Below, one piece after another: positions 2,000 through 34,663 of a stretch of 64,000 nt of DNA. The position numbers and the translations under genes are program-made. This DNA is from Novosphingobium sp. (GTDB taxonomy: Bacteria > Pseudomonadota > Alphaproteobacteria > Sphingomonadales > Sphingomonadaceae), in assembly GCF_965228995.1 (NCBI RefSeq), contig NZ_OZ245852.1, positions 2,205,493 through 2,269,492 of the forward strand, written 5' to 3'. The notes under the pieces are model-generated. The model saw only the letters and a program-made list of their open reading frames with translations. It was not told the DNA's origin and did not search any database. Every line of letters starts with the position of its first letter. Within the stretch, counting starts at the first letter, position 1.

Positions 2000-2065
2000 T
2001 GGCGCAGTAGATGCGTTAATGGCCTGAATTTGGCCCAGCGCTGGCTGCTGCAAAAGATCGTCGCC

Positions 2066-2974: not shown

Positions 2975-3086
2975 CGGCGAAAGTCCGTACGATTGCGATA
3001 GAAAACTGCACCTTCAAGCATGGATCGTACGGATTTGCCAGCATATTTGGGATAAGTGCTGATCATCCCGAAGGACGCCCCTTATC

Positions 3087-4205: not shown

Positions 4206-4207
4206 AC

Positions 4208-4445: not shown

Positions 4446-4760
4446 GCGGATCGGAAATGACTTATCCGCCGGGCCCGGCCTAGCTTGATCGGCAGGCGCT
4501 TATGCGCGGGCAAGGCTGGATATGCTGAAATCCATTCCGCCGAGACAATTTAGACACTCATCATACAGTAATAATGCCCGGCACACCGTTCTGTTGGCCC
4601 TGATATTGGAGATATCCGAAGGGATATTTCGTTTGCTAAAGCAAACTAACTAAGTGAAAGTACATATCGGGGATCGAATCGTGAATTTTGCCCGAGTTGA
4701 AAGCATTTAGCGGCATTCCCCGCTGACTTTGCCTTTGCCCCGGGACCTTGGGGGCATCAA
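4440..4760 (+). promoter_or_regulatory. AT-rich leader and promoter region of the giant tpsA, containing a 7-2-7 inverted repeat GTTTGCTAAAGCAAAC (4631..4646)
   Basis: This non-coding stretch is visibly AT-rich in a GC-rich background and sits immediately 5' of the 17 kb ORF. It contains a perfect inverted repeat. Confidence 0.5.
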
Positions 4761-7700
4761 ATGACGCGCGGTTCGAGCCTCCATCCGAGGGTCCATCATC
4801 TTTACGCGCGGCTCATGGTCGGCGTTTCTATCACGGCGACCGCGGCGCTTGTGCCCGCGCTTGCCAGAGCGCAGTCAATCGATGTCACTGCATCGGCTGG
4901 CGGCCCCTCGAGCGTCGCCTTGCAAAGCGGAGGCAGCGCGGCTGTCGTCACGACGTCCAGGGTCGTTGACGGAACCGGTTTCAACCACTTCGACCATTTC
5001 AATGTGAACACCGGGCAAAGCGCCACGCTGGTCCTGCCCAAGGGCACGAACAATCTCGTCAATCTGATCCGGGACGCATCGACCATCAACGGTTCGGTGC
5101 GCTCCGTGCTTGGCGCGGTGGGAGGGCAGATCGGCGGCAATGTCTTCCTCGTCGTGCCGAGTGGTCTCATCATCGGAGCGACCGGAAGCATCGACACGGG
5201 CCGTCTCATCGTGCGCGGTTCGCCGGGCCTTTACGCAGGTGACGAGCCGACGACGGCAAACGTCTTCGACGGCGGCCGTGCGGCGAGCGTAGTGATCAAC
5301 GGCCGGATATCGGCCCCCGGCGGCGTCGATATCCACACCGCGTCCCTGACCATGGGCTCGAGCGGACAGATCGAGACCGGAGCAGCAGCGCTGGCGCGCA
5401 TCGGCAACACGCTCGACCTGCGCAACAGCCTTGTCTCGACCCAGGGCCTGCCAAGCGGGCAGGCGATCATTACCACCGCCAGCGGCGGGATCGCCATCGT
5501 GGCGGACAGTGTGACGCTTGCCGGGAAGATCGCCGACAATCCGGCGACGACCGCCAATGAGGCAGAGCCCGGTGCATTGCTGGATGCCCGCCCGGTTGCA
5601 AGTTCGCCTGCGCTGGTCGGCGGGGTAACGCTGCAAGGGCCTGCGCTCAATCTTGGCGGCCAGATCATCGCCTGGGACGGGACCGCCTCCGGCCCGGCTG
5701 GCGATATCACCATGACCGCCTCGGACAGCGAGACTTATGGCGGGCTCTTTGCCGCTCAGGTCCCGTACTTCGGCATGCCCAAATCCAATGCCGGGATCAG
5801 CATCGGCGGGGTCATCAGGGGCGGCACCATCGCGATCAGCGCCTCGGCCTCGAGCAGCACCAAACTCGATGATGCGTCCAAGGCCGTTGCCGCACTCGAT
5901 ACGCTCGCCGGAAAGCTCAGTTCCGTCGCGCTCGGCAAGCTGACCGGCAAGGCCGGCCTCGGCATCGGGGCCTTCGTCTCGCTGGCAAGCGCCAATGCCG
6001 CGATCAGCGTGGGTGCCGGGGCCAGCATCACCGCCGCGCGCGATCTCAGCCTGACGGCGGGATCTGCGGCATCGAGCGTCTCGAAGGCATCGGCCAAATC
6101 CGGCGGAACGAGTGCCGGCGGCCTCGCCATTGCGGTGTCGGTGGCGCAGACCACCTCGAACGCAGCGATCACGGTCGGCACTGCGTCAGGCGGCGCTACT
6201 CTTTCGGCGGGCGGTGCGCTGACGATCGGCGCCTCCAGCGATCCGCGCGCCGACGTGCGGGTCAGGGTCGCCTCGAGCGGCAGTGCCGTGGCAGCGGCGG
6301 TTGCGTACAACGAAGTCAATTCCGATGCCGGGGTCACCGTGGCCAAGGGATCGGTGCTCGATGGCACGGCGATTGGCATTTCCGCCAAGACCATCCAGGG
6401 CGACAGCGGCGCTGGCATCCTCACCAGCGCGACCGGCTCGACTTACGACACGAGCCCGGGCGGCGGCGTTGCCGCGGTGACCGAGGAGACGATCCGCAGC
6501 CATGTCAACGTGGCCGGAACGGTCGGCAGCGCGCGCACCGCGACTGTTGCGATCGCGGCCAATACCACGACCCTGTTCAACAAGACGTCCGCGACCACGA
6601 CGGCCGCAACCGGGACCGATACCAGCGGAACGATCCCGACAAGCAAGGCCTCGCTGACCGACCTCATCGGCAATCTTCTGCGGCTTTCAACCGATGACCC
6701 CGCCAAGCCCAAGGTCGGCACGATCGGCACCTCGGCCAATCCCGCCAGCCGCGCGACGGCCTCGGTCGCCGTGCTGCAGGCCGATGAATCGGCCACCGCG
6801 CAGATAACCGGCTCGATCACCGCCACCGGCAAAGTCAGCGTTGGCGGGGTCGTGAGCGACAAGGATGTGCGCAACAACGCACAGGCCAGCACCGCGGCCT
6901 CGCTCGCGGTGAACGGAGCCGCCACTTCCGTATCCGGGGCCGCGGCATGGGGGACGTTTACCTACACCGGGACCGCGGACATCGGCGGCACGGTCAAGGC
7001 CGGCTCGCTCAGCGTGAGTTCGCTGGTGGATCGCCCGGTCGGCCTTGTCGACAACATCGGGACATTGGTCGATCAGGCGGGCACGCTCAACACGCCGGAC
7101 AACTTCAACTCCATCCTCGCCGACCTTTCCTTCGCGAAGGATGTGGTCGCCACCTTGCCGAGTATCCTTGCGCCCAAGTCGGGCCTGTTCGGATCCTATG
7201 CCGGTGCCAGCGGCGATAGCGACAGTTCGGGCAAGGCCGCGATCGGGGGCTCGATCGCCTATGCCCGTATCGATTCAAACAGCCGTGCGTGGATCGATCC
7301 GGCGAGCCAGATCACCATTGCCGGACCGCAGGCCGATGCCTCGACGATTGATGCCGAAACCAACATCGCCCTGCTGAGCATCTCGGGTCCCAAGCTGTTT
7401 GGCACCAAGAGCGGCGGCGCTGCCGGCGGCGGTGCGATCACTTACAATACGATCAATCCGGTCACCCTGGCCGGGATCGGGGATGGGGCGGTCTTCACCG
7501 CACCGGACAAGGCGCTTTCGGTCATTGCCAATGCTGCCATCGATGCACTCACGCTCGCGCCAGTGGCGGGGCGCGGCAAGAGCACCACGCTGAGCGGCGC
7601 TTTCGCGGTCAACCAGATCGAAGGCGCGACCCGGGCCGTTATCTCGAACACCGCCCGGCTCGCCATCGGCGCGGGCGCGCTGCGTCTATCCGCTGCGACT

Positions 7701-10700
7701 GACGAGCAGGTCTGGACCATCGCGGGCACGCTGGCATGGAACAAGGCTGATGGCAGCGCCGGTTCGTCCGATACCTCGGTCGGGATCGCTGGCGCGCTCA
7801 ATTACGTATCCTTGACGACGCAGGCCACCGTCGGCCCCGCGCACGATCTCTTCGATCCCGCATCGCCCGCAGTTGCTGCGGCGGCTTCCGCCGGGATCAC
7901 CTCGGGCAATGTCAGCATCACCGCGCAGACCACCGGTTCGATCAATGCCATCTCGGTCGCCGGGGTGCGCGATAACAGCAATGCGGAAACCACGCCCGAT
8001 TTCCTGAGCAACACCAATGCTCGGTTCAACAAGTTCAAGGGTGCGATCGGGACGGGCATTGTCGATTTCCTGACCGACATGACCACCGGCCTGCTCGCCA
8101 GCTTCGGCGCCAGCACATATTCGCAGCAGCTCAAGACCAATTACGCCTCGCGCAAGGATGCCGGAACAGCCGATGCCGTGACCGCGGGCGATCAGGCCGC
8201 CAAGCCGCCCGCACCGACGGATGGCTGGGGCGTGGCGGGCTCTGCAAGCGTCAACCTCACCGCGCTTGTCACCAAGGTGGATATCGGGCTCGGCCGCTTC
8301 ACCCGGTCTGCCAATGCCACCTCGGCGAGCTTCCTCGCGAAGGCGAGCGAGCGTGCAGATACGCTGGCGATCACTGGCGGTGCGGCGCTTGCCAACGGGG
8401 TCAAATACAGCGGCAGTTCGACGCTGATCGCGGGGGCCTACGGCGTCACCTACAGCAAGAACGCGACAACCCTCACCATCGATCACAGCATTATCGCCGG
8501 GTTCGACGCGATCTCGGCCAATGCCGCAATGAACGGCCTGCGCATCGGTGCAGGCCTTGCGCTTGCGGCGGACACGACCAAGACGCCCGACGGGCGAACC
8601 TTCGCGTCATCCGCCTCGCTGATCATTGCCAACGACAGCGTCGGCGCGAACCTCACCGATGATAGTGTGACCGGCACCGGCAAGGGCGATGTCTCTGTCC
8701 TCGCCTTCGACGGGCGCACGCTCGGCGCGGGTGCTGGCGGGCTTTCGTGGGGCACGCAGAGCGGCTTCGGTGCAGCGCTGACCGTGCTGATCGACAAGAA
8801 CGCCTCGGGCACGCCGACCAGTGCGCTGCTTGCACGCACGCCGGTGGCCGGCTTCGTCAATCTCTCCGTCCAGGCGCTCGATGCAGCGCGGCTTGTCGGC
8901 ATCGCCGCAGCAGGGGCGATCACCACCGGCACGGGCCAGGGCGGCAACGGATTGGCTGCCAGCATCTCGTTCAACGATGTCGCGCTTGGCACCAAGGCGC
9001 TTATCGATCTGGGCGATAACGGCGTGGGATCGGTCAACGTGACCGGCGCGCTTACCGTTGCGGCGGGCGAATATGCTGCAACCAATCCGTCCGCCCAGTT
9101 CGCGCGCATCAGCTGCACCATAAATTGCGATGCCGGCGAGAGCCTGCTGAGCAGTTTCAACATTGCATCGACCACGTTCGGCGCGGATGATCCCGTGCAG
9201 GCGAGCGATCTGCCTTCCGGCGCGGCGATCATCTCGGTGGCGATCCCGGTGGCAGCGGCACGCGGTTCGGCAGGGGGGCTTGGCCTTTCGGTCAACCTCA
9301 TCACCAACGACCGCACCGCCGCGATCATCGGCGGGGCAGCCGCAACCGGATCGACGATCAAGGCAGGCTCGCTCGCGCTGCGGACCGTGGACCGCGCGAC
9401 GATCCTTTCGCTCGCGGCGGGCTTTGCCGGCAGCGACAATGGCAGCGCGGTCATGGGCTCTCTGGCCTATAACCAGATCGGCGGAACCGCGACTGCCAGC
9501 CTTACCCGCTCGGCCGGGGCGACGAAGGGCCCGGTGGTGGAGATCGGCAGCGCTGGTGGCCCTGCGGCGCCGGCTTCGGTCACCGCGCTGGCTGACGGGC
9601 GAATCTACAGCCTCTCGGGCGCCATCGGCAGTGCCAAGAACGCCGCCGGGGGCCTTGCTGTCAGCGTCAATGCGATTGCGCGCCAGGGCTCCGGACCGGC
9701 AGCGGGGATCAACGCGCTGGTGAGCGGTGTGACCCTGGCCGGAAATCCGTCGCTTGCCGTCAACGCCGCGAGCACCGGAACGATCCTCTCGGGCGCGGTT
9801 GCGGGTGCGCTGGGTACGGGCAATGCGCTCGGCGGCTCGGCCTCGACCAACGCCATCGCCCCGACAATCGCGGCGCGGGCAGACGGACTTGCTTATGCCA
9901 ATGCGGTGACCGGAGACCTTGCCGTCACCGCATCGGACAGCGCCTCGATCCGCAGTCTCGCGCTCGCCGCCGCGCTTTCGACCAACCAGAACTCGCTCGG
10001 CGCCGGCATTTCGGTCAACCGGATCAGCACCAATGTGCTCGCCAGCCTTACGCCCGCGAGTGCGATTTCGGTGCGCAATCTCCTCGTCCAGAGCCAGTCT
10101 GCCGCGACCACGCAGCTTGTCGCGGTGGGGCTTGCCCTTGCCGGCAAGTTCGGCGGGGCTGGCTCGATTGCGGTCAACCAGACCAGCGCCGAAGCCGACG
10201 CACTGCTTACGCTCAATGGCTTCAACGTGAACGCGACCGGCTCGGTCGGAGTGCTGGCGACCCGCGATTCCGCGATTGACGCAGCAGCTGGCGCGGCAGG
10301 ATTTGGCGCCAAGTCGGCGGTTGGTGCAGCGCTTGTTCTCAACGACGTGACGGGCGGTGCGCAGGCACTGGTGAGCGGCACCGGCGGCGCGACTGTCACC
10401 GCGCTCGGCCAGGGCGACGGCCTGACGGTGCGGACGGGTGACCTCACCGAAGCGCTCAAGCAGTTCGATTTGCCGGCGCTCGTCCCCGAATCGACGGGCA
10501 CCACAGGCGCCTCGCGCGCGGCGCTAGGCAAGCTCAAGCCCGCCACAACCGTGGTGCACGGAGTGGCCATCAACGCGAACTCCACGCATGCCACCCGTAC
10601 GCTTGCCATTACCGGGGCGATCGCAGGCAACGGCTTTGCGGCGGCGGTGACCGCGGTTGTGGGCAATGTCGGCGGAACGACACTCGCCAAGGCCAGCGGG

Positions 10701-13700
10701 ATACAGTTCAAGGTCGGCAATGTCGCCGCCGCCAAGCCGGTGGCAGAGCCGGTCGCGCTGGATATCCGCGCCGGAACCGCGATCGATACGTCAAGTTTTG
10801 CCGGTGCGGTTGCGGGCAGCAACGGCGTCGGCGTGGGCGCGCCGGTCGTATCGGACGGGCTCACCGCGCAGACCAGTGCGCTGCTGTCAGGCGGCGGTGT
10901 GACGACGACCGGCTCGGTCACCGTGCGCGCAGCCTCGCGACAGGCGGCGACAGCGCTCGTGCTGGCGGGCGCGGTCGGCGGCAACGTGGGCGCGGCGGTC
11001 TCGGGCGTTTCCCCCCGTTTTGCAGCCGTGACGACTGCGGCAGTCGATGATCCGGACACGGTTTCGATCCTCGGCAGCGGCGGCCTTGCGATCAACGCGG
11101 ATAGCGACTCCCGCGGTTTCGCAACTTTCGGTAGCCTCGCGCTCGGCAAGGCTGCGGGCGCGGCAACAGTCGTGGTGGTGACTGACGATGATCAGACCAC
11201 GGCCCGCTACAAGAGCGCCAAACGCATCGCCGTTACCGCGCCCGCCATCAGCGTTTCGGCAAACGGCCGTTTCGATGCGCGGGTTGCGGGAGGATCGGTC
11301 GCCGCCGGGGTTGCCGGGGCGCTGGTCGGCAACGGGGTCGGCGTGGTCAATCGCCAGGTCATCGCGGCGCAGGCAAGCGGGCTCAATTACACCAATGCTG
11401 CGGGCAAGGTTTCGGTCACCGCCGCCCAGATCGCCAATTTCCAGCCGGTGATCGGGCAAGTGGCGGTCACTGCCAGCCTCGCCAGCGGTGCAGGGGCGCT
11501 CGGTGCGGTGGTCGTCCTCTCGCAAGCCAAGGTCGATGCGACGCTGATCGATCCGCTGGTCACTGCGGGCACGGTTTCGGTCAACGCTTATGGCGCGAGC
11601 GGGGTCGATGCGCTGCAGCTCGGTTTTGCCGGTGGGCTTTCCGGCAGTATCGGGGCCAATGTCACTTACATCGGCATCGGCGAAGTCGCTGATACCGGTG
11701 CGCTGTTCTCCAAGAGCGGCGGCAACGATGCCAACAGCCAGGTCGCGGCCAATGCCGGTTCGAGCGGCAGCGGCAATGGCAACCTCGCCATGCTCGGCGG
11801 CGGCAGCGGTGAGACGACTGCGCAGCAGGCCGCCGCAGCGGGGATGGATCAGCTGTCCGGCCCTGCCTCCACGCACCTCGTGACCGGCGCCGACGGCACG
11901 CGCGATGCCACTGGCGCGCTCCAGACAAGCAGCCGCGATCAGTTCATGCAGGTTGGCGCAGTCACCTCTGCACCAAGCGCCGACGACGGCGCCGCCTCCC
12001 GCGTCCGGGCGCAGGTGCTTTCCGCCACGGCCGGGCAGGCAAGCCAGGTAAAAGTCGGCGCGCTCAGCGTTGTGAGCAGCGCCAATCTTGTCAGCAAAAG
12101 CTCCAATTTCCAGGGCGCGGCGAGCCTTGCCAGCGGTTCCGCAGCTATCGCGATCACCCGCAATGCGGCGAACAGCATTGCCCGGATCGGCGCGGGCGTT
12201 ATCGCCGCCGGGCTCGCGGGCAGCAGCACGCTCGACGTTCGCGCGGATACCGGACAGGACGCGAGCCGCCTCACCGGAGGGATCACCAACCCGTCGAAAG
12301 CCGCCGAGGCGCTGGTCGTCTCCGGATCCGTCGGGGCGCTGACCGCCAACATCGGTCTTGCCGATATCAAGCTGCAGACGGTCTCGCTGGCTGAAAGTCT
12401 TGGCGCAGTCGGTTTCGGCACGACGACGATCAAGGCAAGCGACAGCAGCGATGCGGCAGCCAATGTCTACGGCGTTGCGGCAGGCGCCACGGGCGCGCTC
12501 AATGTTGCACTCGCCAATGTCACCAAGCAAGGCACGGTCGGCGCGCAGCTTGCGGGCAAATCGTTCTCGGCCATTACCCGGGTGATCGCAGCCGGCGGAG
12601 GCTCGACCAGCGCATATGCGCTCGCGGCTTCAGGCGGCTATTTCTTCGATGGCAATGCCGCTGTCGCACTCGCGACCGACCAACGCACGATCGATGCGCG
12701 CGTTGGCGAAGGCACGGTTGTCGCCAGCAACACCCTGTTGGTCGATGCTTCGGCTACCCCGCAAATCAGCGCGCAGAGCGATGGCATCGCGGTGAGCGGC
12801 GGGCTCGCCATGGGTGGCAGCGTCGCGCTCGCCACAGCCGATGCCACTATTCTGGCGCGGATCGGGGAAGGCGGCAGGATCACCTGCGTCACATTGCTCG
12901 CGCCCGGGTGTACGCTGACCGTACGGGCGGCATTGTTGCAACCTGCGTCAGGCCCCAACGTGCTCGCCAGCGCAAGGGGCAGCGCGGGCGGCGCGCTGGC
13001 TGCGGCCAATGCGTCCATCGCAACCGCGTCCGATACAGCGGACGTTGCGGCCATTGTCGGTGCCGATCTCAACGGCCAGCCGGGCGCGCCGACGGTTCTT
13101 GCCGGTCCCTCGATCACGATTTCAGCGAGCCGCACACTCGCGCAGACGGCGAGGGCGGACGGCCTCACGATTGCCGGGCTGCTCTCGGTCGGCGTGCAGG
13201 CGGCCAAGGCGCGTTCATCGGGGACGGTCGATGCCGCGCTCCTCAACGTCGATGGTTCGCAGCAGGTGCTGGTTGATGCCGTGACAGGACGTCCGCTGGT
13301 CGATGCATCGGGTGCTTTCGTGCGCAATCCTGATGCGACCGTCACCGCCAGCAGCCTCGATCTCAACACGGCGATTACTCGGGCCGGTGCGGGCGCGCTG
13401 GGCGCTGGCGTCGCGGCGGATGCGGCGACGGATTCGAGCGGGATCGTCACGACCACGATCGCACCTGACGCCGCCTTCGCGTTCCGCGCCGGCAAGCTTA
13501 CCGCGACCGCGACGGCTGCGGCCGACTATCATGCCGAAGCCGATGCAACCCAGGCCTCGGTTGTCGGCGGATCAGGCAGCACGACCGAAAACAGTGTCAA
13601 CACAACCGCGCACGTGGTTATCGGCAAGGCGGGCAAGGGCTCCACCCCGGGCACGAATTCCGTGCTCCGCGCGAGCAGCTTCGTGATCGGCGCGCAGAAC

Positions 13701-16700: not shown

Positions 16701-19700
16701 CAGCCGGGGCAATTCACGACCAAGGTCGATGATCTCGTGACCTATGCGGTGGGCGTTGGCGAGACAGGCACGAACACCAGTTCCGACTCCCCGCTCCAGT
16801 ATGATCCGTCCACCCGCGGCGGCGCCTATTTCGTGACGAACGAAACCCGCACGATCACGCGTGAAGTCTCGGTGACCAATGGCACCCAGCTGGACGGTGT
16901 CGACGTCCGCTATGGTGCTGCGAGCCCGTGGAAGTATGGCAACGCGACCCAGCAGCCGCAGGGCGGAACCTTTGTCGATATATCGACGCAGGGTACCGAT
17001 CCAAGGCTGCTGGCCGCGCTAGGCGGCAGCACGCCGGACTTTGTCCAGATGGTCAGCGGCGTCGTTACCGACAAGATCAACGATACCACGCAATTCTCGG
17101 CCGCGCCTGGCCAGAACTATGACGAGAACTTCACCTGGGAGCTTCCCAAGACAATCAACGTCACGCTGACCACTGCGGTGCGCGCGACGTATCCGATCAA
17201 CATCCTGTTCGATCAGGGACACGGCCAGAGCGGGGTCAATGTCGTGTCCACGCAGGGCAGCGTCGTAGTCGGCGGGCGGATTACCTACGGCGGCGGCGAT
17301 GTTGCGATCACTTCGGCGCAGAGCATCCTCGGCACCCCGAGCGGGCTGGTTTACGCGCACGGCTTCCGTGGCTGTGCGAACTCGACCTCGCCTTCGAATT
17401 GCGAGTCCAATGGCCTGACCGGCTCGATCGGTTCGGCTGACCAGCCACTCGCCGTGACAGTCGCCGGCTCGACATTGGGCGATCCGGTTACAGGCCTCGG
17501 CAAGTCTCTGGGCGGAACCGTGAGCGCGCAGACGAGCAATGGCGATGTCTATCTGAAGCTCAATTCGTCGACCGCGACTGCAGGCGATCTTGATGCCGTG
17601 GTGCTTGCGGCCGTCGGCGCCAGCGGCAAGGTGGTCATCACTTCGGGCACAGGGCTGGTCGGGCTTGACGGGCTTGGCCCGAATATCGCGGCAAAGGAAA
17701 TCGATCTCACTTCCGCCGGATCGGTCGGCGGGTTCAATCCCTATTCGGGCAGTGGCAGCGATCCCCTGCTCAAACCCGCGCTCACCGTCGAGGTGGGCGA
17801 GGGCGGCCTGTGGATCAACGCGGGCGGTGATATCACCGTGCAGGGTGCGATGCACCACGATGCAACGGACCTTGCCAATGTTCTGCGGCTTGGTGCCATC
17901 GTATCGACCCGCGATGTGCAAATCCGCGCGCCCGGCTCAATCGTTGCGCTCGATACAACGACGATCGTCAACCAGGACAAGCTCGCGCGTTTCCTTGCAG
18001 CGGCACAGGCGCTCCAACTTGCGCCGAGCGCCAGTTGCAGCGGCGCGGCCTGCAGCGGGACCGATCCGGCGCGGCTCGCCTCGATCACCGACGCACTGCG
18101 CAATCAGGCCCGCACCGCCTATGACACGATCATTCGTTCGGCCGGCCTGCCCACCAGCGAGGCCACCGATATCGCGGCGCGGATCGACAAGCTCAACGCA
18201 CTTTCCGCGGCCGGCGTCGCCATCGGGCGGGACGGGACGCTCGTTTATGACCCGCTGAAGGATACCGGCAAGACGGCGGCGGCCTTTGCTGCCACGCTCA
18301 CCGGGCGCAGCGGACTCAGCACTGCCGACGTAACGAGTGCGCTGCAGACATATGCCAACAGCGTGATCGCGCTTGTCGGCACCCGCCTTCCAAACCTTTC
18401 GGGCAGCGCAGACAAGGCAGCGGCCATATCCGCACTGGTGCAGGCGCAGGGCCGGTCGGCGGCAGAGGCCGATGCGCTTGGCAAGCTGCAACTGGTCGAT
18501 CAGTTGCGCAGCCAGGGCGTCCAGATCGATGCGAGCGGCAAGGTCACGCTCTCAGCGACCGCCACGGTCGCACCGGGCAGCGCGCTCGCCGCTTTGGCGG
18601 TAAGTGCGCTGCAATCGCAGACCAACGCGCTCAAGCCCGCGGCTGGCGCGACTGCGATCACCCCCATTGCCCAGCCGACTCCGGCAGACGTCCAGCGCGG
18701 TCTTCAGGCCTACGTCGATAGCCTCACCACCAGAATAAAGCCGCTGCTTGGCGGTACGCTGCCCACGCTCGCCGGGATTTCGACCGATGCTGCGCAGCTT
18801 GCCTTCATCGACAGCAAGGTGAGCGCCGGCAGCTTCGCGGCCTACGCAGGCGCGCAGACCGCCGATGCGAAAGCCGTCCTGCTGCAGGAATTCGGTGCGC
18901 TTCCGCCTTCGCGCACGAGCATCGATACGCTGGCCTTTGCGCCGGCCTTCCTTGCCGCGCGCACCGACGGGGCGACCTGGCAGCAGACGCAGCTTGATTT
19001 CCAGGTACCCTCGACTGCGTTCGTCCCCGTCGCCGATACCCAGTTCGAGACGCGCAAGGCGGTCATCACCGCGCGCAGCCTTACATTGGTTGCTGGCAAT
19101 TCGATCGGCAACTTCGAGGCACCCAAAGCTTTCCGCTTTACCAGCGCGGGTCTAGTCGATGCGGCTGGCAAGCCGATCACCGATCCGCTTCAGAAGCAGC
19201 TTGCTGCGGCCTATCTCGCCTCTGCCGGACCCGGCGATCTTGTTGCCAGCGTCACCGGCTCGCCGGCCACGCAGGTCACCTTCATCAGCCGTCATGACCA
19301 GCCTTTGCCGCTCGACGTAAGCGGCGTGGTCAATGCCTTTGCCGCAACCAACTACGTCTCGCGCAGCACCACCTGGACCGCCGCTAATGCAGACCAGCTT
19401 TCGGGCGACATCTTCCTGACCGATGTCGGCACGATGACCATCGGCTCGATCGTCAGCCTCAAGCCGGTGACCGGTGCGCGGCGAAACGATTGCAACAGCA
19501 ATCCCGCCGTGCCGCTTTCGGGCTGCGATAGCCGCATCCGCCTTACCGCCAATGCCATCACCGGTGTGACCCAGGGTGCCGTGCAGCTTACTGGCCGAAC
19601 GTTCGTGAACGGCAGTCTGTCGCGCCAGAACGTCACGGACCCCGCTGGCCGTGCTGTGATCATGGGCGGGCTGATCCGGCTCGAAGCCTCGAACGGAAAT

Positions 19701-22019
19701 CTGCAATCGGCGGATGGCAGCGCGATCGGAGTTGATGCGCAGTCGCTCGAAGTGGTGCGTGCAGCGGGCAATGCGCTGCTGTTCAAGCGCGCACCGGCGA
19801 CCATTGGCTCAAGCGATTTCAGTGCAGGGCTGGCCTATATGAATGGCCAGGATCTCACTGTCGGCGATGTGTTTGCGGGCCGCACTTTCGCGCTCGACAA
19901 TCCCTTGGGCTCGCTGCTCGTGGGGGCGGTTCCCTACAGCCTTGCCAGCGAGAACCGCAACGGACGGATCGTTGCCGGGCTGGTGCGACTGCGCGCGGCG
20001 GGCGACATTGGCGGGACCGGGATCACCGCAGCGGGGCTGCCTGCGCGCTTTGACATCCAGACTCCGCAGCTCGACATTCTGGCCGCAGGGTATGACTTTG
20101 CTGCCGCGCCGACAGCCATGCCTGCGGCGACCTTCAGCTTCGATGGCGGCGGCCAGCATATCTTTACCGCGGCCGAGCTGCTCGGCACGGCGGTGATCAG
20201 TCCTGTGACGCCCGCCTACATCAAGATTACCCAGCTGCCGACCGGCGCCAGCCTTGTACTCAACGGGCCCGGCGGCTTGCGTTTCGTCAAGAACGGCTCT
20301 TCGATCCCGGTGTCCGCAATCTCGCAGCTGCAGTTCAATGGTTTCAGCGGATTGGGCACCCAGACGATCGGTTTCCAGCTTGTCCTGCCAGCAGGGGCCA
20401 TCGGCACCGGCCCCGCGCCCAATGGACAAGCTGGCGGCTCGGCCTGGCTCGATCTGCGCAGTCCGGTGCGGATTGGCGGCGGAACAAGCTCGCTCATCGG
20501 CGCGCGCGGCAGCATCGATATCGGCAAGGTTGGAGGCAGCACCGGGCTGGTCGATCTCGAAAGCCCGATCACGGTAGGCGGCACCGCCACTATCGTGACC
20601 GCTGGCCCCTTCGCCATCGGGCAAACGGTGACCGTGGGCGCGAGCGGTATTGCAACGCCGGCTTCCTGCGCCACCGATCCCGGCCCGGCAGCATGCCTGA
20701 TGGACTTGTCGAGGCTCAACCTCACCGTCGGCGGCGCGTTCAACTTCACCACCGGGCGCACTATCGAGTTCGGAGCGTTGGCTGCTGGCGGCGGCACCGT
20801 GGAATCGACCCAAGGCTCGATAACCATCGACCGGAGCCTCATCGGGAGCGCGAACGCTGCTGCGCCCTTCACGCTGAAGGGCAATACCGGCGTGTTCACC
20901 CACGACATTCTCGGCGGCGCACTTGCGCTTGTCTCGGCCAACGGCAACGTTGATGTCGCAGGCACGATGAAGGCCTCCTCGATCACGATGATGGGCAAGA
21001 CGACTGGTGTCGACGGCGCCATCGACACCAGCAACCTCGTGATCGTGGCAGACGGCGACGTGACGCTCGAGAGCACGGTCACGGCAGACTCGCTGCATGT
21101 GACCGCAACCGGCGATCTCGAACTTTCGCATTCGATCACATTGCGCTCGCCCCCGGGCCATACGGCCTCGGCGCTCGTTGCGGGCGGCGAGGTGGCGCTG
21201 GGCGACAATGTCGTGATCAGCGGAACTTCGGACAGCGTCCTCACGGTCACCGGCGCGAGCGTCGCATTCGCTCCGTCCTCGATTATCCGCGGGATCGATA
21301 CCCGGATCGTGGCGACAGAAGGCGGTGTGCGGCTCGGCACGATCGATGGCGGTGCGTTGGCGGTCCGCGCCCCGGGCGATATCGTGCTGGGAAGGCTCTT
21401 TGCGCGCGGTGCCTCGCTTGTCTCGCTAGACGGAAACATCGATTTTGGCGGTCCGGTGCAGATCGGAGGGCCGGGCGTCCATGCTGCGGCGCTGCGCACG
21501 GCAGCAGGGCTGGGCGCTGACGGAAGCCTTTACGCCCGCGCGCCGGGGTCGATCACGATCGAGGGACCGATGGCCGCAGCCGGAGGGATCACGCTTGCCG
21601 CTGGTTCGATCGTCACCACCGGAGAGGGCTATCTCAGCGATAACCTCAACGCCGGAATGCCGATCGTGCTGCGCGGTGACCGCATCGCAATCAGTTTCCG
21701 GGATCCCGCGCTGGGCGCGCAGCCGCTCAACCTCAATGTCGCCGGCTATACCGCGCCCGCAGCGAGATCGGCACGGTTCTTCTTCGACACGGCTCGCCCG
21801 ATCGATTTCACCACGCTCAAGGTCCTGAACGTGCGCGTCGATGCTGGTGGCACCGTTCGCTACGCCCCGTGGAGCGAGTGCAGCATGCTGCCTGTCGCGG
21901 CCGGTAGCTGGCTCGAAGTCTGGGGCGGGCCTGCAGGGCGCTGCGCCCAGCCACCTGCGCTGGACCCCGTTGAAGCCCGGCCGATCGCGCCGCAACCCTC
22001 CTCCCTTTCGCAGCGGTGA
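4761..22019 (+). CDS. giant two-partner-secretion exoprotein TpsA, filamentous-haemagglutinin-like, 5752 aa
   Basis: One uninterrupted 17.3 kb ORF. It has an extended signal peptide followed by a TPS (haemagglutination-activity) domain: NHFDHFNVNTGQSATLVLPKGTNNLVNLIRDASTINGSV...GNVFLVVPSGLIIGATGSIDTGRLIV. A very long Gly/Ala/Ser/Thr/Val-rich repetitive region (beta-helix-like) follows, then a less repetitive C-terminal third with paired cysteines. A TpsB gene lies immediately downstream. Confidence 0.9.
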   Translation: MTRGSSLHPRVHHLYARLMVGVSITATAALVPALARAQSIDVTASAGGPSSVALQSGGSAAVVTTSRVVDGTGFNHFDHFNVNTGQSATLVLPKGTNNLVNLIRDASTINGSVRSVLGAVGGQIGGNVFLVVPSGLIIGATGSIDTGRLIVRGSPGLYAGDEPTTANVFDGGRAASVVINGRISAPGGVDIHTASLTMGSSGQIETGAAALARIGNTLDLRNSLVSTQGLPSGQAIITTASGGIAIVADSVTLAGKIADNPATTANEAEPGALLDARPVASSPALVGGVTLQGPALNLGGQIIAWDGTASGPAGDITMTASDSETYGGLFAAQVPYFGMPKSNAGISIGGVIRGGTIAISASASSSTKLDDASKAVAALDTLAGKLSSVALGKLTGKAGLGIGAFVSLASANAAISVGAGASITAARDLSLTAGSAASSVSKASAKSGGTSAGGLAIAVSVAQTTSNAAITVGTASGGATLSAGGALTIGASSDPRADVRVRVASSGSAVAAAVAYNEVNSDAGVTVAKGSVLDGTAIGISAKTIQGDSGAGILTSATGSTYDTSPGGGVAAVTEETIRSHVNVAGTVGSARTATVAIAANTTTLFNKTSATTTAATGTDTSGTIPTSKASLTDLIGNLLRLSTDDPAKPKVGTIGTSANPASRATASVAVLQADESATAQITGSITATGKVSVGGVVSDKDVRNNAQASTAASLAVNGAATSVSGAAAWGTFTYTGTADIGGTVKAGSLSVSSLVDRPVGLVDNIGTLVDQAGTLNTPDNFNSILADLSFAKDVVATLPSILAPKSGLFGSYAGASGDSDSSGKAAIGGSIAYARIDSNSRAWIDPASQITIAGPQADASTIDAETNIALLSISGPKLFGTKSGGAAGGGAITYNTINPVTLAGIGDGAVFTAPDKALSVIANAAIDALTLAPVAGRGKSTTLSGAFAVNQIEGATRAVISNTARLAIGAGALRLSAATDEQVWTIAGTLAWNKADGSAGSSDTSVGIAGALNYVSLTTQATVGPAHDLFDPASPAVAAAASAGITSGNVSITAQTTGSINAISVAGVRDNSNAETTPDFLSNTNARFNKFKGAIGTGIVDFLTDMTTGLLASFGASTYSQQLKTNYASRKDAGTADAVTAGDQAAKPPAPTDGWGVAGSASVNLTALVTKVDIGLGRFTRSANATSASFLAKASERADTLAITGGAALANGVKYSGSSTLIAGAYGVTYSKNATTLTIDHSIIAGFDAISANAAMNGLRIGAGLALAADTTKTPDGRTFASSASLIIANDSVGANLTDDSVTGTGKGDVSVLAFDGRTLGAGAGGLSWGTQSGFGAALTVLIDKNASGTPTSALLARTPVAGFVNLSVQALDAARLVGIAAAGAITTGTGQGGNGLAASISFNDVALGTKALIDLGDNGVGSVNVTGALTVAAGEYAATNPSAQFARISCTINCDAGESLLSSFNIASTTFGADDPVQASDLPSGAAIISVAIPVAAARGSAGGLGLSVNLITNDRTAAIIGGAAATGSTIKAGSLALRTVDRATILSLAAGFAGSDNGSAVMGSLAYNQIGGTATASLTRSAGATKGPVVEIGSAGGPAAPASVTALADGRIYSLSGAIGSAKNAAGGLAVSVNAIARQGSGPAAGINALVSGVTLAGNPSLAVNAASTGTILSGAVAGALGTGNALGGSASTNAIAPTIAARADGLAYANAVTGDLAVTASDSASIRSLALAAALSTNQNSLGAGISVNRISTNVLASLTPASAISVRNLLVQSQSAATTQLVAVGLALAGKFGGAGSIAVNQTSAEADALLTLNGFNVNATGSVGVLATRDSAIDAAAGAAGFGAKSAVGAALVLNDVTGGAQALVSGTGGATVTALGQGDGLTVRTGDLTEALKQFDLPALVPESTGTTGASRAALGKLKPATTVVHGVAINANSTHATRTLAITGAIAGNGFAAAVTAVVGNVGGTTLAKASGIQFKVGNVAAAKPVAEPVALDIRAGTAIDTSSFAGAVAGSNGVGVGAPVVSDGLTAQTSALLSGGGVTTTGSVTVRAASRQAATALVLAGAVGGNVGAAVSGVSPRFAAVTTAAVDDPDTVSILGSGGLAINADSDSRGFATFGSLALGKAAGAATVVVVTDDDQTTARYKSAKRIAVTAPAISVSANGRFDARVAGGSVAAGVAGALVGNGVGVVNRQVIAAQASGLNYTNAAGKVSVTAAQIANFQPVIGQVAVTASLASGAGALGAVVVLSQAKVDATLIDPLVTAGTVSVNAYGASGVDALQLGFAGGLSGSIGANVTYIGIGEVADTGALFSKSGGNDANSQVAANAGSSGSGNGNLAMLGGGSGETTAQQAAAAGMDQLSGPASTHLVTGADGTRDATGALQTSSRDQFMQVGAVTSAPSADDGAASRVRAQVLSATAGQASQVKVGALSVVSSANLVSKSSNFQGAASLASGSAAIAITRNAANSIARIGAGVIAAGLAGSSTLDVRADTGQDASRLTGGITNPSKAAEALVVSGSVGALTANIGLADIKLQTVSLAESLGAVGFGTTTIKASDSSDAAANVYGVAAGATGALNVALANVTKQGTVGAQLAGKSFSAITRVIAAGGGSTSAYALAASGGYFFDGNAAVALATDQRTIDARVGEGTVVASNTLLVDASATPQISAQSDGIAVSGGLAMGGSVALATADATILARIGEGGRITCVTLLAPGCTLTVRAALLQPASGPNVLASARGSAGGALAAANASIATASDTADVAAIVGADLNGQPGAPTVLAGPSITISASRTLAQTARADGLTIAGLLSVGVQAAKARSSGTVDAALLNVDGSQQVLVDAVTGRPLVDASGAFVRNPDATVTASSLDLNTAITRAGAGALGAGVAADAATDSSGIVTTTIAPDAAFAFRAGKLTATATAAADYHAEADATQASVVGGSGSTTENSVNTTAHVVIGKAGKGSTPGTNSVLRASSFVIGAQNIVGQTGNDGGFSKGAGGGAATGAAAKVTNQVTQHAAVDVLAGTTLRQYGDASQNLLAMQINAGITTARSASTALQVGGVMLLPFARTDSTFNADSKVAIGTNALLRADGGIGIGTTAQQTIADSSAVQIYGLAGIGGGSSSTTANTSGLVTVGDGATIESLSDVLLTPGIGADGLSRDSISVSDQTDVFNQTVVPITVDHDAHATANLSNRLIVGKAVVRSARDVTFSALAQGVTATAVGTGHNPYLSIFSKSDSGGTADMATSGAIALNGSQITAGFLANRKIGITDTNDGGWQVVEADFDGTDKLTRTITADVSGSITGDTLTSGAGLTTAAPDRDRLGLAQFSSRTVSALDVVGQQITSLTAQVQAAGIVVPSDPNLLPAGDAHDSLASKLAAAAAQSALVAKLSAAFDTRAALTASGNTTTAGIMVDNLLAAGGSFAINTDSITGSGSRVVANASPTIAINSTSARNLLLGNLFIPAKPSGAVTYGGQAGETNLSTIATVQSSGIGDTVEGLIDVTNGAPFGGKSDLLVFGPIANVGGTFKALVNNGNFSQFGDVQVGKYDVTVPNGLFNVSTDGAFTKGVPINLYYGHVGLTLNDPQSSGCAGGSGEGCKANANDLSLFVQSAIAEQAVANYLVDHPVLTNGQPLTVGSGIDGLRSALKQLFNLSDAQVADPIRLLFEEGFVPAGSQQYYHVNSAGQLIAVATTFGIAKWGTANHSSGATIFASCSAVCEVESNDRDLSNGFSGQEFLFQTHSGETVRFNYPDNDGLGSYYSLGSAFVDPVITRQINANSQLGPGDNRTISANQVRINAKFVNISGSIVAGPEKQRSVDISARFTDATGMLIQDSMALDPNVHVGSVSAPLQLTNVATGNIGARYVVSGLVRNAQNQVISTTGYIQLDDVDAGAGGVIDITGRILNTNPLGGGELRVLDGFANISIINNAPVDLHLGTINAGTDVSGLIKLTDLKGDGSVETTQYRDVPGQGVTMSHVTSMPVAGQPGQFTTKVDDLVTYAVGVGETGTNTSSDSPLQYDPSTRGGAYFVTNETRTITREVSVTNGTQLDGVDVRYGAASPWKYGNATQQPQGGTFVDISTQGTDPRLLAALGGSTPDFVQMVSGVVTDKINDTTQFSAAPGQNYDENFTWELPKTINVTLTTAVRATYPINILFDQGHGQSGVNVVSTQGSVVVGGRITYGGGDVAITSAQSILGTPSGLVYAHGFRGCANSTSPSNCESNGLTGSIGSADQPLAVTVAGSTLGDPVTGLGKSLGGTVSAQTSNGDVYLKLNSSTATAGDLDAVVLAAVGASGKVVITSGTGLVGLDGLGPNIAAKEIDLTSAGSVGGFNPYSGSGSDPLLKPALTVEVGEGGLWINAGGDITVQGAMHHDATDLANVLRLGAIVSTRDVQIRAPGSIVALDTTTIVNQDKLARFLAAAQALQLAPSASCSGAACSGTDPARLASITDALRNQARTAYDTIIRSAGLPTSEATDIAARIDKLNALSAAGVAIGRDGTLVYDPLKDTGKTAAAFAATLTGRSGLSTADVTSALQTYANSVIALVGTRLPNLSGSADKAAAISALVQAQGRSAAEADALGKLQLVDQLRSQGVQIDASGKVTLSATATVAPGSALAALAVSALQSQTNALKPAAGATAITPIAQPTPADVQRGLQAYVDSLTTRIKPLLGGTLPTLAGISTDAAQLAFIDSKVSAGSFAAYAGAQTADAKAVLLQEFGALPPSRTSIDTLAFAPAFLAARTDGATWQQTQLDFQVPSTAFVPVADTQFETRKAVITARSLTLVAGNSIGNFEAPKAFRFTSAGLVDAAGKPITDPLQKQLAAAYLASAGPGDLVASVTGSPATQVTFISRHDQPLPLDVSGVVNAFAATNYVSRSTTWTAANADQLSGDIFLTDVGTMTIGSIVSLKPVTGARRNDCNSNPAVPLSGCDSRIRLTANAITGVTQGAVQLTGRTFVNGSLSRQNVTDPAGRAVIMGGLIRLEASNGNLQSADGSAIGVDAQSLEVVRAAGNALLFKRAPATIGSSDFSAGLAYMNGQDLTVGDVFAGRTFALDNPLGSLLVGAVPYSLASENRNGRIVAGLVRLRAAGDIGGTGITAAGLPARFDIQTPQLDILAAGYDFAAAPTAMPAATFSFDGGGQHIFTAAELLGTAVISPVTPAYIKITQLPTGASLVLNGPGGLRFVKNGSSIPVSAISQLQFNGFSGLGTQTIGFQLVLPAGAIGTGPAPNGQAGGSAWLDLRSPVRIGGGTSSLIGARGSIDIGKVGGSTGLVDLESPITVGGTATIVTAGPFAIGQTVTVGASGIATPASCATDPGPAACLMDLSRLNLTVGGAFNFTTGRTIEFGALAAGGGTVESTQGSITIDRSLIGSANAAAPFTLKGNTGVFTHDILGGALALVSANGNVDVAGTMKASSITMMGKTTGVDGAIDTSNLVIVADGDVTLESTVTADSLHVTATGDLELSHSITLRSPPGHTASALVAGGEVALGDNVVISGTSDSVLTVTGASVAFAPSSIIRGIDTRIVATEGGVRLGTIDGGALAVRAPGDIVLGRLFARGASLVSLDGNIDFGGPVQIGGPGVHAAALRTAAGLGADGSLYARAPGSITIEGPMAAAGGITLAAGSIVTTGEGYLSDNLNAGMPIVLRGDRIAISFRDPALGAQPLNLNVAGYTAPAARSARFFFDTARPIDFTTLKVLNVRVDAGGTVRYAPWSECSMLPVAAGSWLEVWGGPAGRCAQPPALDPVEARPIAPQPSSLSQR

Positions 22020-23662
22020 AACTCATGCCTTTCCGTCCTAGCTGCGCTTTTGCGGCCATTGTTCTCATCGCCCTCGCTCCGCTCCCGGAAAACGTGCGGG
22101 CGGCGGCTCCGGTGCTTGCCCCCGGTGTCGATCCAGGCCTGATCAACGAGAGCCTCAGGCGCCAGTTCGAGCTTGATCGCCCGGTCGCCCCTCCGCAGCC
22201 GAGCGTCAGCGTGGATGCCGCGCCCCCCGCAGAGCCCAGCACCCGCACCTCCCTGCGCTTTGCGCTCAAGACCATCCAGTTCGATCAGAGCCACTATTTC
22301 GGCCCGGACACGCTCGCCGCGCTCGCACGTCCGCTGGAGGGGCGCGAAGTCGGGATCGATGAGCTTCAGGCGCTCGTTGCGCGGATCAATGCGCTTTATA
22401 CGGCGCGGGGCCTCGCCACAGCGCGTGCGGTCCTCGCTCCGCAAGCAGTCGAGGGCGGGATCGTGAAGATCCGCCTCGTCGAAGGACGGCTCGGCGCTAT
22501 TACGGTCACTGGCGGCAGTGCGCGCAGCCAGCGCCGGGTGCGCGGGGTGATTGCGCTGCGACCGGGCGATCTTGCCGATCCGCGCGATCTCGAGGCGCGG
22601 CTGCGCCAGTTCAACCGCGAAAACGATGGCCACCTGCGCGCTGGGCTGACAGCAGGCCAGGGCCTTGGCCAGACGGATCTCGAGCTGCAGCTGATCGAAC
22701 CGCCCCGGCTTGGCCTTGAGGTGTTTGCCGACAACAACGGCTACCGCTCGACCGGCATGTGGGAGGAAGGCGCGATCATCCGGGCGTACCGCGTGCTGGG
22801 CACGGCTGACCGGGCTTCGCTCGTTGCGGTGCGCTCGCCGGGTGTGAAGTCCGTTTCCGGGGCGTGGTCTGCTCCGATTGGTACAGGCACGCGCTTCGGC
22901 CTCGCCGCCTCTTACGGCGAAACGACCATCCGGCAGAGCACTTCCAATCCGCTCTCGATTGCCGGCCGCTCAAACACCGTCAGCGGCGACCTCGCGTTTG
23001 CCCTGGCCAATCGCAACAGCTTTGCGCTCCATCTCGATACCACCTTGAGCTTCACCCAGTCCGACACCCGCATCAGCGGCGAACGAGTGGTCGACAACCA
23101 GGTAACGACGGCCGGAGCCGCGCTCTTGTTCGATATCTTCACGCCCCACCTCGTCGGCTCGGGCCATATCGAGGCCAATTTCAGTCACGTCGAGGAACGG
23201 GTCTCGGGCAGCGTGGTCGAACCGCTCATCCTGCGCGGGGATTTGCAGCTCAGCCGCCCCGTGGGAAGCCACGGCAACTACATCCGCTTCCGCGGCGATG
23301 GCCAGTGGACCGGAGCGGGGGCGCTGCCCGGCCTGCTTCAATACCAGATCGGCGGCGCACGCTCGGCCCGCGCGCTCGATCCGGGCACCGCGGCGGGGGA
23401 CAGCGGGTTTACCGTGGCTCTGGAAACAGGACACGCGCAGCCGATCGGACGTTGCGCGATCGATGTCGGGTTTTTCCTCGATCACGCTGAAGCTTATGCC
23501 GCTGGTCAGCCAGCCGAACGCGCGACCGATATCGGCACCTCGCTCACCTTTTCGCTCAACAACCGCATCAGCATTCGCGGACAATATGCCTTGGCGGTTG
23601 ATCATTCCGGACCCGGCGTGATGCCAAGGCGGGGATACCTCTCGGTCTCGGCGCGTTTCTAG
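22016..23662 (+). CDS. TpsB outer-membrane transporter (ShlB/FhaC/HecB family; POTRA plus 16-strand barrel)
   Basis: 548 aa with a signal peptide (MKLMPFRPSCAFAAIVLIALAPL). The POTRA-like region reads LKTIQFDQSHYFGPDTLAALARPLEGREVGIDELQALVARINALYTARGLATARAVLAPQAVEGGIVKIRLVEGRLGAITVTG. The C-terminal barrel ends ...LSVSARF. Its start overlaps the tpsA stop (GTGA), or it uses the ATG at 22025. Confidence 0.9.
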   Translation: MKLMPFRPSCAFAAIVLIALAPLPENVRAAAPVLAPGVDPGLINESLRRQFELDRPVAPPQPSVSVDAAPPAEPSTRTSLRFALKTIQFDQSHYFGPDTLAALARPLEGREVGIDELQALVARINALYTARGLATARAVLAPQAVEGGIVKIRLVEGRLGAITVTGGSARSQRRVRGVIALRPGDLADPRDLEARLRQFNRENDGHLRAGLTAGQGLGQTDLELQLIEPPRLGLEVFADNNGYRSTGMWEEGAIIRAYRVLGTADRASLVAVRSPGVKSVSGAWSAPIGTGTRFGLAASYGETTIRQSTSNPLSIAGRSNTVSGDLAFALANRNSFALHLDTTLSFTQSDTRISGERVVDNQVTTAGAALLFDIFTPHLVGSGHIEANFSHVEERVSGSVVEPLILRGDLQLSRPVGSHGNYIRFRGDGQWTGAGALPGLLQYQIGGARSARALDPGTAAGDSGFTVALETGHAQPIGRCAIDVGFFLDHAEAYAAGQPAERATDIGTSLTFSLNNRISIRGQYALAVDHSGPGVMPRRGYLSVSARF

Positions 23663-23707
23663 GCGCTTTGGCCAAACTGGGTACCGTCAGGGGATTGCAC
23701 CAGAGCG

Positions 23708-24184
23708 GTGAACTTCGGGTCGATCGAGGAGTGCACGCTCGAAAGTTTTCGATTCGTGAATTCGGCCATGTCCGAGGGCACATTCCTCGGGTGCCATACC
23801 GCGATCCCGCTGATGAAAGCTGGCGGCGGCGGCTCAATCATCAACATGGGATCGATTGCCGGGATAAAGGGCGTCAGCCAGATTCCCGGCTATTGCGCTG
23901 CCAAGGGCGCCATCCACGCCCTGACGCGCTGCGTTGCGGTCTATTGCCGCGAGCAAGGCAACGGCATCCGCTGCAACACGATCGTGGCCGGTTCGATCCG
24001 CACCCCGATGACCATGCGCGCGCTCTCGGAGATGCCCGAGGACAGCCCGAGCTTCGAGGAACTGGAAGTCCACGGTCAGGGCCAGCCCTCTGACGTGGCC
24101 AACATGGTCCTCTACCTGGCCTCGGACGAGGCGCGCCATGTCAACGGGGCGTCGCTGGTCATCGATAATGGGGAGACGGCCTGA
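23708..24184 (+). pseudogene. N-terminally truncated short-chain dehydrogenase/reductase (SDR) fragment
   Basis: 158 aa that align to the C-terminal two-thirds of an SDR (NFGSIEECTLESFRFVNSAM...MGSIAGIKGVSQIPGYCAAKGAIHALTRC, with the active-site YxxxK). Compare the intact paralogue at 37991. The Rossmann TGxxxGxG N-terminus is absent. The frame is closed by the tpsB stop codon TAG at 23660. Confidence 0.7.
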
Positions 24185-34660: not shown

Positions 34661-34663
34661 GAA

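Follow-up and report, generated by a model that had tools for sequence, protein, structure and literature searches.

The tpsA and tpsB genes (tpsAB) of a Novosphingobium sp. chromosome probably constitute a two-gene type Vb (two-partner) secretion system, as judged from the sequences of both products. The gene pair is located in a 64,000-nucleotide stretch of contig NZ_OZ245852.1 (positions 2,205,493 to 2,269,492 of the forward strand; hereafter, the window), to which the nucleotide coordinates below refer. tpsA (4761..22019) spans 5,752 codons and encodes the 5,752-residue protein TpsA, and tpsB (22016..23662; 548 codons when counted from a GTG codon) encodes the Omp85-family transporter TpsB. 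Both genes and all features within them lie on the + strand. TpsA is identical to RefSeq WP_421846405.1, which an exact-sequence look-up places on a 4.1-Mb contig of Novosphingobium sp. under the name "beta strand repeat-containing protein". The two-partner secretion (TPS) domain of TpsA, the identity of TpsB and the conserved A-then-B linkage of the two genes are established. tpsAB is thus a real and ordinary two-partner secretion pair from a little-studied branch, whose exoprotein is already in RefSeq under a generic name.

The tpsA frame was described in an initial annotation as a single open reading frame (ORF) of 17.3 kb, and the ORF list and the translation show it to be free of internal stops over that length. 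The G+C content at third codon positions (GC3) in the sense frame is 0.76–0.80 along the whole gene, similar to the values of the flanking genes (0.74–0.82). With TpsB as the query, the genome collection yielded a single relative, a contig of an uncultured Sphingomonadales metagenome-assembled genome (MAG), which matches window positions 17184-23660 with 80.6% nucleotide identity. The last 1,613 codons of tpsA align with the MAG sequence with zero gaps and 81% amino-acid identity, and the synonymous (dS) and nonsynonymous (dN) divergences over these codons are 0.67 and 0.12, respectively, with a dN/dS value of 0.18. Because of the gapless alignment and the low dN/dS value, tpsA is a selected coding frame under purifying selection and not a chance ORF. 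The boundaries of the long antisense ORFs across tpsA are not preserved in the MAG, and these ORFs are therefore by-products of composition, as originally proposed. The dominance of Gly, Ala, Ser, Thr and Val noted earlier is also borne out, with these five residues composing 57% of TpsA overall. In 250-residue tiles, their share is 54–69% up to approximately residue 3500 and 44–60% beyond, where aromatic, Asn, Asp and Cys residues are more common.

The N-terminal 37 residues of TpsA (4761..4871) form a putative Sec-type signal peptide, judged by eye from a basic n-region, a hydrophobic core and the cleavage sequence ALARA/QS. Read from their own start codons, the homologs P0001 and P0002 can be aligned with TpsA at both the start and the cleavage region. 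The signal peptide is followed by the TPS domain (residues ∼38–300; 4872..5660). Within this domain, residues 63–153 match the NCBIfam model NF012204 (adhes_FxxPxG, leukotoxin LktA family filamentous adhesin) with a score of 68.4 bits, above the cut-off of 60. Moreover, a five-sequence TPS family profile, which combines the domains of TpsA, a metagenomic homolog and three relatives encoded on plasmids, matches the crystallised secretion domain of HxuA (4I84) with an E-value of 9e-6. TPS domains share conserved motifs, including NxFxxFNV, an ILNxV...SxIxG block and NPNG; the definitions used here partly follow the names of two NCBIfam models, adhes_NPXG and adhes_FxxPxG. In TpsA, the FNHFDHFNV motif (4980-5006) and the LVNLIRDASTINGSV segment (5055-5099) compose a block that is typical of TPS domains, and the GGNVFLVVPSGLIIG segment (5133-5177) stands where NPNG is expected. 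By these sequence features, the TPS domain of TpsA is assigned to the LktA/FxxPxG type and not to the FhaB type. An AlphaFold model of residues 38–420 is beta-helix-like, but it was derived from a two-sequence alignment and has a mean pLDDT of 42.6, and a Foldseek search with this model returned nothing significant.

TpsB displays the domain composition of a ShlB/FhaC-type transporter. The POTRA_2 (PF08479; 68.4 bits) and ShlB (PF03865; 45.3 bits) families are both matched above their curated cut-offs, and the best relatives of TpsB among solved structures in the PDB are CdiB (E=1e-10) and FhaC (E=4e-6). The ShlB-type POTRA domain is located at residues 82–157 (22259..22486). The loop L6 motif, GGARSARALDPG (23351..23386), carries ARAL at the position of the VRGY hallmark, and its partner motif, GFFLDHAEA (23468-23494), retains the Asp residue. 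In a five-sequence alignment, R452 of TpsB and the barrel residue D489, whose counterparts pair with each other in FhaC, are invariant, and the Val, Gly and Tyr positions of VRGY are changed. Thus, the N-terminal TPS domain and the ShlB/FhaC-type transporter named in the initial annotation are both present, the former as an LktA-type domain with a Pfam score under its cut-off (see below). Of the two outcomes that would have refuted the initial annotation, a missing TPS match around residues 40–300 and a split ORF, neither is observed.

Two candidate start codons are found for tpsB. The GTG at 22016 shares its TG with the TGA stop of tpsA and, if used, generates the 4-bp overlap that was reported originally. 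An in-frame ATG at 22025, 9 nt downstream of the GTG, is preceded by GGTGA at a 6-nt spacing and would leave a 5-nt gap to tpsA. The GGTGA-N6-ATG arrangement is conserved (window 22014-22027, L006 ∼4839-4853 and L011 17432-17445), both in the MAG and in Novosphingobium sp. FKTRR1, for whose tpsB the gene caller picked the ATG. In a homolog with 40% identity, the junction consists of TAA, a 9-nt spacer containing GGGA, and ATG, with no overlapping start. Because the GGTGA-N6-ATG element is conserved and the 40%-identity homolog lacks an overlapping start, the ATG at 22025 is at least as probable a start codon as the GTG and is considered the likelier one, which would place the tpsA stop codon inside the ribosome-binding site of tpsB. 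The two genes are tightly linked whichever start is used. Co-transcription is probable given the conserved gene order, and translational coupling is plausible.

The linkage extends beyond this genome. In 8/8 related loci (L006, L007/L008, L009, L010, L011 and those of Terrarubrum, Thalassospira and Gemmobacter), tpsA is followed by a co-oriented tpsB, with junctions that range from an overlap of 1 nt to a gap of 88 nt, and the flanks of tpsAB differ in all of them. An exhaustive HMMER search of 1.84 billion representatives with TpsA residues 3401–4600 retrieved only 29 proteins (E<=1e-3), five of which are long homologs that are collinear with TpsA over their whole length: P0002 (WP_255630995.1 from Novosphingobium sp. 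FKTRR1; 5,740 aa, 73% identity), P0003 (5,885 aa, ∼43%), P0004 (5,765 aa, ∼40%), P0005 (5,812 aa, ∼35%) and the N-terminally truncated P0006 (4,164 aa). A word-indexed homolog search returned one match for residues 1–1200; for residues 3481–4680 and 1–350, whose low-complexity words filled the 8,000 candidates considered, it returned none among those candidates. The full-length homologs form a rare, collinear clade of 5,709–5,885 aa with 35–73% identity, and PGAP gives the 73% homolog the name 'leukotoxin LktA family filamentous adhesin'. More distant relatives are encoded on plasmids of Terrarubrum flagellatum (WP_342363801.1; 6,361 aa; annotated as an LktA-family filamentous adhesin), Thalassospira marina (WP_101286506.1; 8,765 aa) and Gemmobacter aquarius (>6,427 aa). 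Because of these lengths, 5,752 aa is the norm for the clade and not extreme for the wider group, which qualifies the view that a protein of this size is unusual. Full-text literature searches turned up no publications about LktA-family members from genera other than Fusobacterium.

Several observations weigh against the assignment of tpsAB to two-partner secretion. The Pfam TPS family (PF05860) matches the N-terminus of TpsA with E=3e-7, which favours the assignment, but the score of 31 bits is under the gathering score of 33.5. The NPNG position is occupied by VPSG in TpsA; the same column contains NPNG in Thalassospira and DSHG in Terrarubrum. The L6 hallmark VRGY of TpsB, which is essential in FhaC (PMC5422565), is replaced by ARAL. 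The MAG homolog has the same variant, the Terrarubrum and Gemmobacter transporters have VRGY and that of Thalassospira has MRAY. Finally, ∼95% of TpsA (beyond approximately residue 300) has no match in Pfam or among solved structures, even via family profiles. The degenerate hallmarks (VPSG for NPNG, ARAL for VRGY), together with the position of the locus between gene remnants, could be taken to indicate a locus that is decaying and no longer functional, or a mistake of assembly or ORF calling in GC-rich DNA. That explanation is effectively refuted by a frame that is stop-free over 17.3 kb, evolves at a dN/dS of 0.18 and aligns without gaps to a relative at 80% DNA identity, by the presence of the same motif variants in the MAG homolog, and by the conserved protein length across homologs of 35–73% identity. 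A two-partner secretion pair with variant hallmarks is the preferred reading.

The passenger region of TpsA (residues 301–5752) starts with a Gly/Ala/Ser/Thr/Val-rich shaft (residues 301–3400; 5661..14960) that is conserved position by position. In the family alignment, TpsA is conserved along its full length, with identities to three distant homologs that are typically 0.30–0.50. Since the conservation covers the entire protein, the shaft (residues ∼300–3400) is not a freely evolving low-complexity array. Regular tandem repeats were considered and rejected; a composition-corrected self-BLAST of TpsA detected no repeats, and the autocorrelation is weak (lag 17 at z=3.3). With an iterated HMM, a core of ∼41 aa (LAGSIAVNQ...) was recovered 13 times, at irregular intervals and not as a tandem array, and a profile–profile self-comparison revealed a few ancient duplications inside residues ∼816–2300 with probabilities of 82–95%. 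The degenerate repeats attributed to TpsA previously therefore exist in a weak sense, as scattered motif copies and a few old duplications.

The LktA-type TPS domain raises the question of whether TpsA is a secreted cytolysin or leukotoxin acting like LktA of Fusobacterium necrophorum or ShlA/HpmA, and not an adhesin. The TPS domain fits the LktA-type model NF012204, and LktA is a leukotoxin secreted by the T5b route (bioRxiv 10.1101/534297). LktA and LktB are encoded by the lktBAC operon, and the likeness to tpsAB is drawn through the NCBIfam model named after LktA. LktA is ∼3,241 aa long, and its transporter gene is located upstream. The tandem 53-aa repeat model of LktA (LktA_tand_53, NF012206) reaches best scores of only 32.4 and 26.3 bits in the shaft of TpsA against a cut-off of 50. 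Moreover, the gene order is A-B and not lktB-A-C, with no lktC-like gene, and the family name given by NCBI itself is 'filamentous adhesin'. tpsAB is flanked by catabolic and transport genes and belongs to an environmental sphingomonad; leukocyte toxicity is not expected of a soil or water sphingomonad. A cytolytic function is accordingly improbable.

The shaft is followed by a central region that is not of low complexity (residues 3401–4250; 14961..17510). Two sub-modules of this region (residues ∼3407–3580 and ∼3850–3985) recur in other, mostly fragmentary metagenomic proteins, and the latter contains the ITGRILNTNPLGGG segment (16443-16484). The shorter proteins with these sub-modules contain no Pfam domains. 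An AlphaFold model of residues 3381–4250 has a pLDDT of 43 and no meaningful fold match and is unusable. Between the two sub-modules, residues 3601–3800 (15561..16160) form a hypervariable, indel-prone module, in which the identity to distant homologs is 0.14–0.30 with 21–43% gaps and the identity to the 73% homolog falls to 0.49–0.55. In the alignment with the 73% homolog, most indels are concentrated in residues 3601–4200, and only two gap positions are found in residues 1201–3500.

Downstream of the central region, an Ala/Leu/Gln-rich stretch (residues 4435–4700; 18063..18860) consists of about three ∼115-aa units (hhalign probabilities of 43–67%), and its composition suggests a helical character. 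The next segment (residues 4701–5100; 18861..20060) is the most conserved block of TpsA, with a dN/dS of 0.10. This block includes the TWQQTQLDFQVPSTAFVPVADTQFETR segment (18975-19055; motif TWQQxQLDFxVPSTAFVPVADTQFETR) and the AYLASAGPGDL sequence (19209-19241). The C-terminal region (residues 5101–5752; 20061..22016) comprises ∼650 residues and is more variable. A second variable patch is located at residues ∼5500–5700. The last residue is Arg in every clade member (window 22014-22016; P0002–P0005, P0007 and L006), and the preceding ∼50 residues diverge.

Of the Pfam families that the initial annotation had named for the two ends of TpsA, the TPS family is matched at the N-terminus, below its gathering score, and filamentous hemagglutinin repeats are not found. 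No TpsA tile matches Fil_haemagg or Fil_haemagg_2 at E<=0.01; the weak hints are a match with E=0.94 at residues ∼5412–5456 and one with E=0.0052 in one homolog. No Pfam family is matched at E<=10 over the C-terminal 2,350 residues, and Pfam scans of homologous family members yielded no family either. PDB searches also returned nothing for either half of TpsA as a single sequence or for profiles of residues 300–1500, 3381–4250, 4250–5110 and 5100–5752. Because nothing past approximately residue 300 matches Pfam or known structures, the assignment of TpsA as a fibre or adhesin draws on analogy and composition.

The arrangement of the passenger bears on whether TpsA is a toxin-delivery protein of contact-dependent inhibition (CDI), like CdiA. 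CdiB is the best solved relative of TpsB, and the variable module in the middle of TpsA recalls the receptor-binding domain of CdiA. However, neither a PT-VENN/pretoxin domain nor a toxin domain is detected in TpsA at any threshold. The gene order is A-B, the reverse of the transporter-first order of B-A-I, and no immunity ORF is found, since tpsB directly follows tpsA and is itself followed by a truncated dehydrogenase gene. The C-terminus is conserved in the clade, being 62–77% identical to that of the MAG homolog, and is not polymorphic. A CDI function is therefore highly improbable.

All 18 Cys residues of TpsA are arranged in nine pairs with a spacing of 4–21 residues (1452/1456, 2709/2717, 3586/3594, 3710/3714, 4205/4214, 4426/4431, 4911/4922, 5303/5312 and 5707/5728), a pattern that was reproduced by 0/200,000 random placements. 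The homologs have the same paired-Cys pattern, and four or five of the pairs fall in conserved alignment columns; the plasmid-borne giants have the pattern too. In type V passengers, Cys residues are rare, and work on autotransporters indicates that closely spaced pairs or short disulfide loops are tolerated by narrow-barrel translocation. The Cys pairing of TpsA, as an apparent extracytoplasmic signature, fits the secretion model. The last pair, Cys5707/Cys5728 (21879-21944), is observed only in the Novosphingobium sub-clade and is absent from homologs of 35–45% identity. Some TpsA proteins stay attached to the transporter via a small periplasmic domain with a disulfide bond (PMC5422565), and the Cys5707/Cys5728 pair recalls this disulfide-containing periplasmic anchor.

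We infer the secretion route of TpsA from established TPS biology. TpsA would be exported to the periplasm by the Sec machinery with its 37-residue signal peptide, and its LktA-type TPS domain would be recognised there by the POTRA domains of TpsB. The 5,700-residue chain would then be threaded unfolded through the TpsB barrel and fold outside the cell. The product would be a very long fibre, either surface-attached or released, that serves as a rigid, length-constrained scaffold, and the exposed variable module at residues ∼3600–3800 would be the likely ligand-binding part. By analogy with known exoproteins, the fibre shape of the TpsA bulk is plausible; if the protein is a beta-helix, extrapolation from the ∼50 nm FHA rod predicts filaments of about 100 nm. 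The fibre would serve adhesion, aggregation or another form of cell-surface contact, and an adhesin or aggregation role is about as probable as its absence.

A topology like that of FhaB and CdiA would be compatible with this route and does not exclude it. In such a topology, the N-terminal ∼3,500–4,200 residues would form the filament outside the cell, tipped by the variable module, and the conserved C-terminal 1,300–2,000 residues would be periplasmic, either as a prodomain or as a half that is arrested in secretion and controls release or follows at a later stage. The position of the indel-rich module 3601–3800 in mid-sequence between two highly conserved halves points in this direction, as do the distinct composition, the helical-looking repeat and the dN/dS 0.10 block of the C-terminal part. 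The terminal Cys5707/Cys5728 pair is also comparable to that of the disulfide-anchored TpsA proteins (PMC5422565), but this pair is missing in the homologs of 35–45% identity. In addition, no FhaB prodomain, proline-rich region, FHA-2 domain or pretoxin domain was detected in TpsA, and topology is not readable from sequence. We consider this arrangement possible, if doubtful. A broader proposal, that the Novosphingobium-type clade represents a distinct TPS passenger architecture in which a length-conserved, non-repetitive scaffold is combined with one hypervariable module, a helical repeat and a conserved C-terminal block, is more speculative still and rather unlikely as a whole. One reading of this architecture is a toxin-less, CdiA-like hairpin or secretion-arrested topology with the variable module as a ligand-binding tip, and the paired Cys residues would then be obligatory short disulfide staples.

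Secretion of TpsA through TpsB as a long exoprotein, the preferred reading, is best compared with the closest relatives of the pair. WP_255630995.1/WP_226018902.1 (FKTRR1, L011) and the metagenomic homologs P0003–P0005 are collinear with TpsA, have tpsB immediately downstream and share the paired-Cys pattern. They differ in all flanks, the distant members lack the C-terminal Cys pair, and some have a neighbouring gene for a Trans_reg_C protein. The plasmid-borne giants of Terrarubrum, Thalassospira and Gemmobacter resemble TpsA in TPS type (30–37% identity), A-then-B order, a Gly/Ala/Ser/Thr/Val content of 56–61% and few, paired Cys residues, and they display collinear weak matches to the TpsA central region. 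In contrast, their similarity is very low beyond the TPS domain and a few patches, their lengths differ, and 2/3 of their TpsB proteins have a canonical VRGY. Compared with Bordetella FhaB/FhaC and Haemophilus HMW1/HMW1B, TpsA lacks Fil_haemagg repeats, VPSG and ARAL replace NPNG and VRGY, respectively, and TpsA is 1.6 to 3.7 times longer. An HMW1C-type glycosyltransferase gene, an SphB1-type protease gene and a fimbrial gene are all absent near tpsAB.

These results change little in principle, since very large fibre-like exoproteins are already well known as substrates of type Vb secretion. The evidence supports a more specific name for WP_421846405.1, as an LktA-type TpsA that has TpsB as its cognate transporter. 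The clade illustrates that a 5,700-residue passenger that looks like low-complexity sequence can stay conserved in position and length. The confinement of variation to one central module makes this module a tractable target for work on binding-site presentation in TPS passengers. The natural occurrence of ARAL in place of the 'essential' VRGY and of VPSG in place of NPNG provides useful natural experiments on the mechanism of TpsB and the TPS domain. A length-conserved, structurally uncharted passenger with a hypervariable module, paired Cys residues and variant hallmarks is noteworthy, although it would not surprise a specialist.

The right edge of the tpsAB block coincides with a 5'-truncated short-chain dehydrogenase (SDR) gene (23708..24184, + strand; profile positions 87–234 of 236), which starts 46 nt past the tpsB stop. 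Its first ∼90 codons are gone, including those of the NAD(P)-binding TGxxxGxG motif, and full-length metagenomic homologs with 78% identity carry ∼90 extra N-terminal residues with TGAASGLG. Similarity to the full-length dehydrogenases begins at 23700-23707 and similarity to the tpsAB-bearing MAG stops at 23660, which places the right edge of the block in an interval of ∼45 nt, where it cuts the resident gene. tpsAB thus seems to have entered a resident dehydrogenase gene or to have taken the place of one part of it. The edges of the block contain neither direct nor inverted repeats, no tRNA gene is found, and there is no compositional anomaly, the GC3 of tpsA being like that of the neighbours. 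Together, these features and the differing neighbourhoods in all relatives suggest that the two genes move, or undergo replacement, together as one block.

On the left side, the AT-rich segment 4500..4760 (+ strand, 48% GC) is the presumed promoter and 5' untranslated region of tpsA. This segment contains no sigma-70 consensus, no Rfam match, riboswitches included, was obtained upstream of tpsA, and the upstream region is not conserved across homologous loci. Farther upstream, an 80-codon open frame (4213..4452, − strand) weakly resembles the last 45 residues of the LysR substrate-binding domain (LysR_substrate positions 163–208 of 209, E=0.016). This possible 3' remnant of a LysR-type regulator gene is sub-threshold and is not relied on. 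Replacement by tpsAB of the shared 5' ends of a divergent LysR–SDR pair was also considered and is unsupported, as the LysR match is sub-threshold and the full-length SDR homologs have other neighbours.

No accessory genes for a glycosyltransferase, a protease, an acyltransferase or immunity are found in the window. In two distantly related loci, a 624–699-aa protein of the OmpR/PhoB-type Trans_reg_C family adjoins tpsAB (L007 27009-29108 and L010 5916-7790). This protein, which in L007 also displays faint TPR matches, may be a dedicated regulator and has no counterpart in the window. In several related loci (L009 777-7744, L010 1-5904 and L005 21343-27000), glycosyltransferase/DUF2827 genes and a very large ORF (1,389 aa; >1,808 aa) are located by tpsAB. 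Such neighbours, none of which is present in the window, are a hint that some lineages may have glycosylation or a further large surface protein.

Elsewhere in the window, the 34000-41000 segment has a GC content of 0.58–0.60, compared with ∼0.65, and carries a pair of GH25 lysozyme-family genes (34619-35695 and 35692-37794) together with an IS3-type transposase gene (39798-40868, − strand); it may be a separate acquired segment. The remaining genes of note are ordinary. A resistance-nodulation-division (RND) efflux operon (43899-49709, − strand) encodes an outer-membrane factor, an AcrB-family pump and a membrane-fusion protein, and a major facilitator superfamily (MFS) transporter gene is accompanied by an HlyD-family gene (50645-53426).

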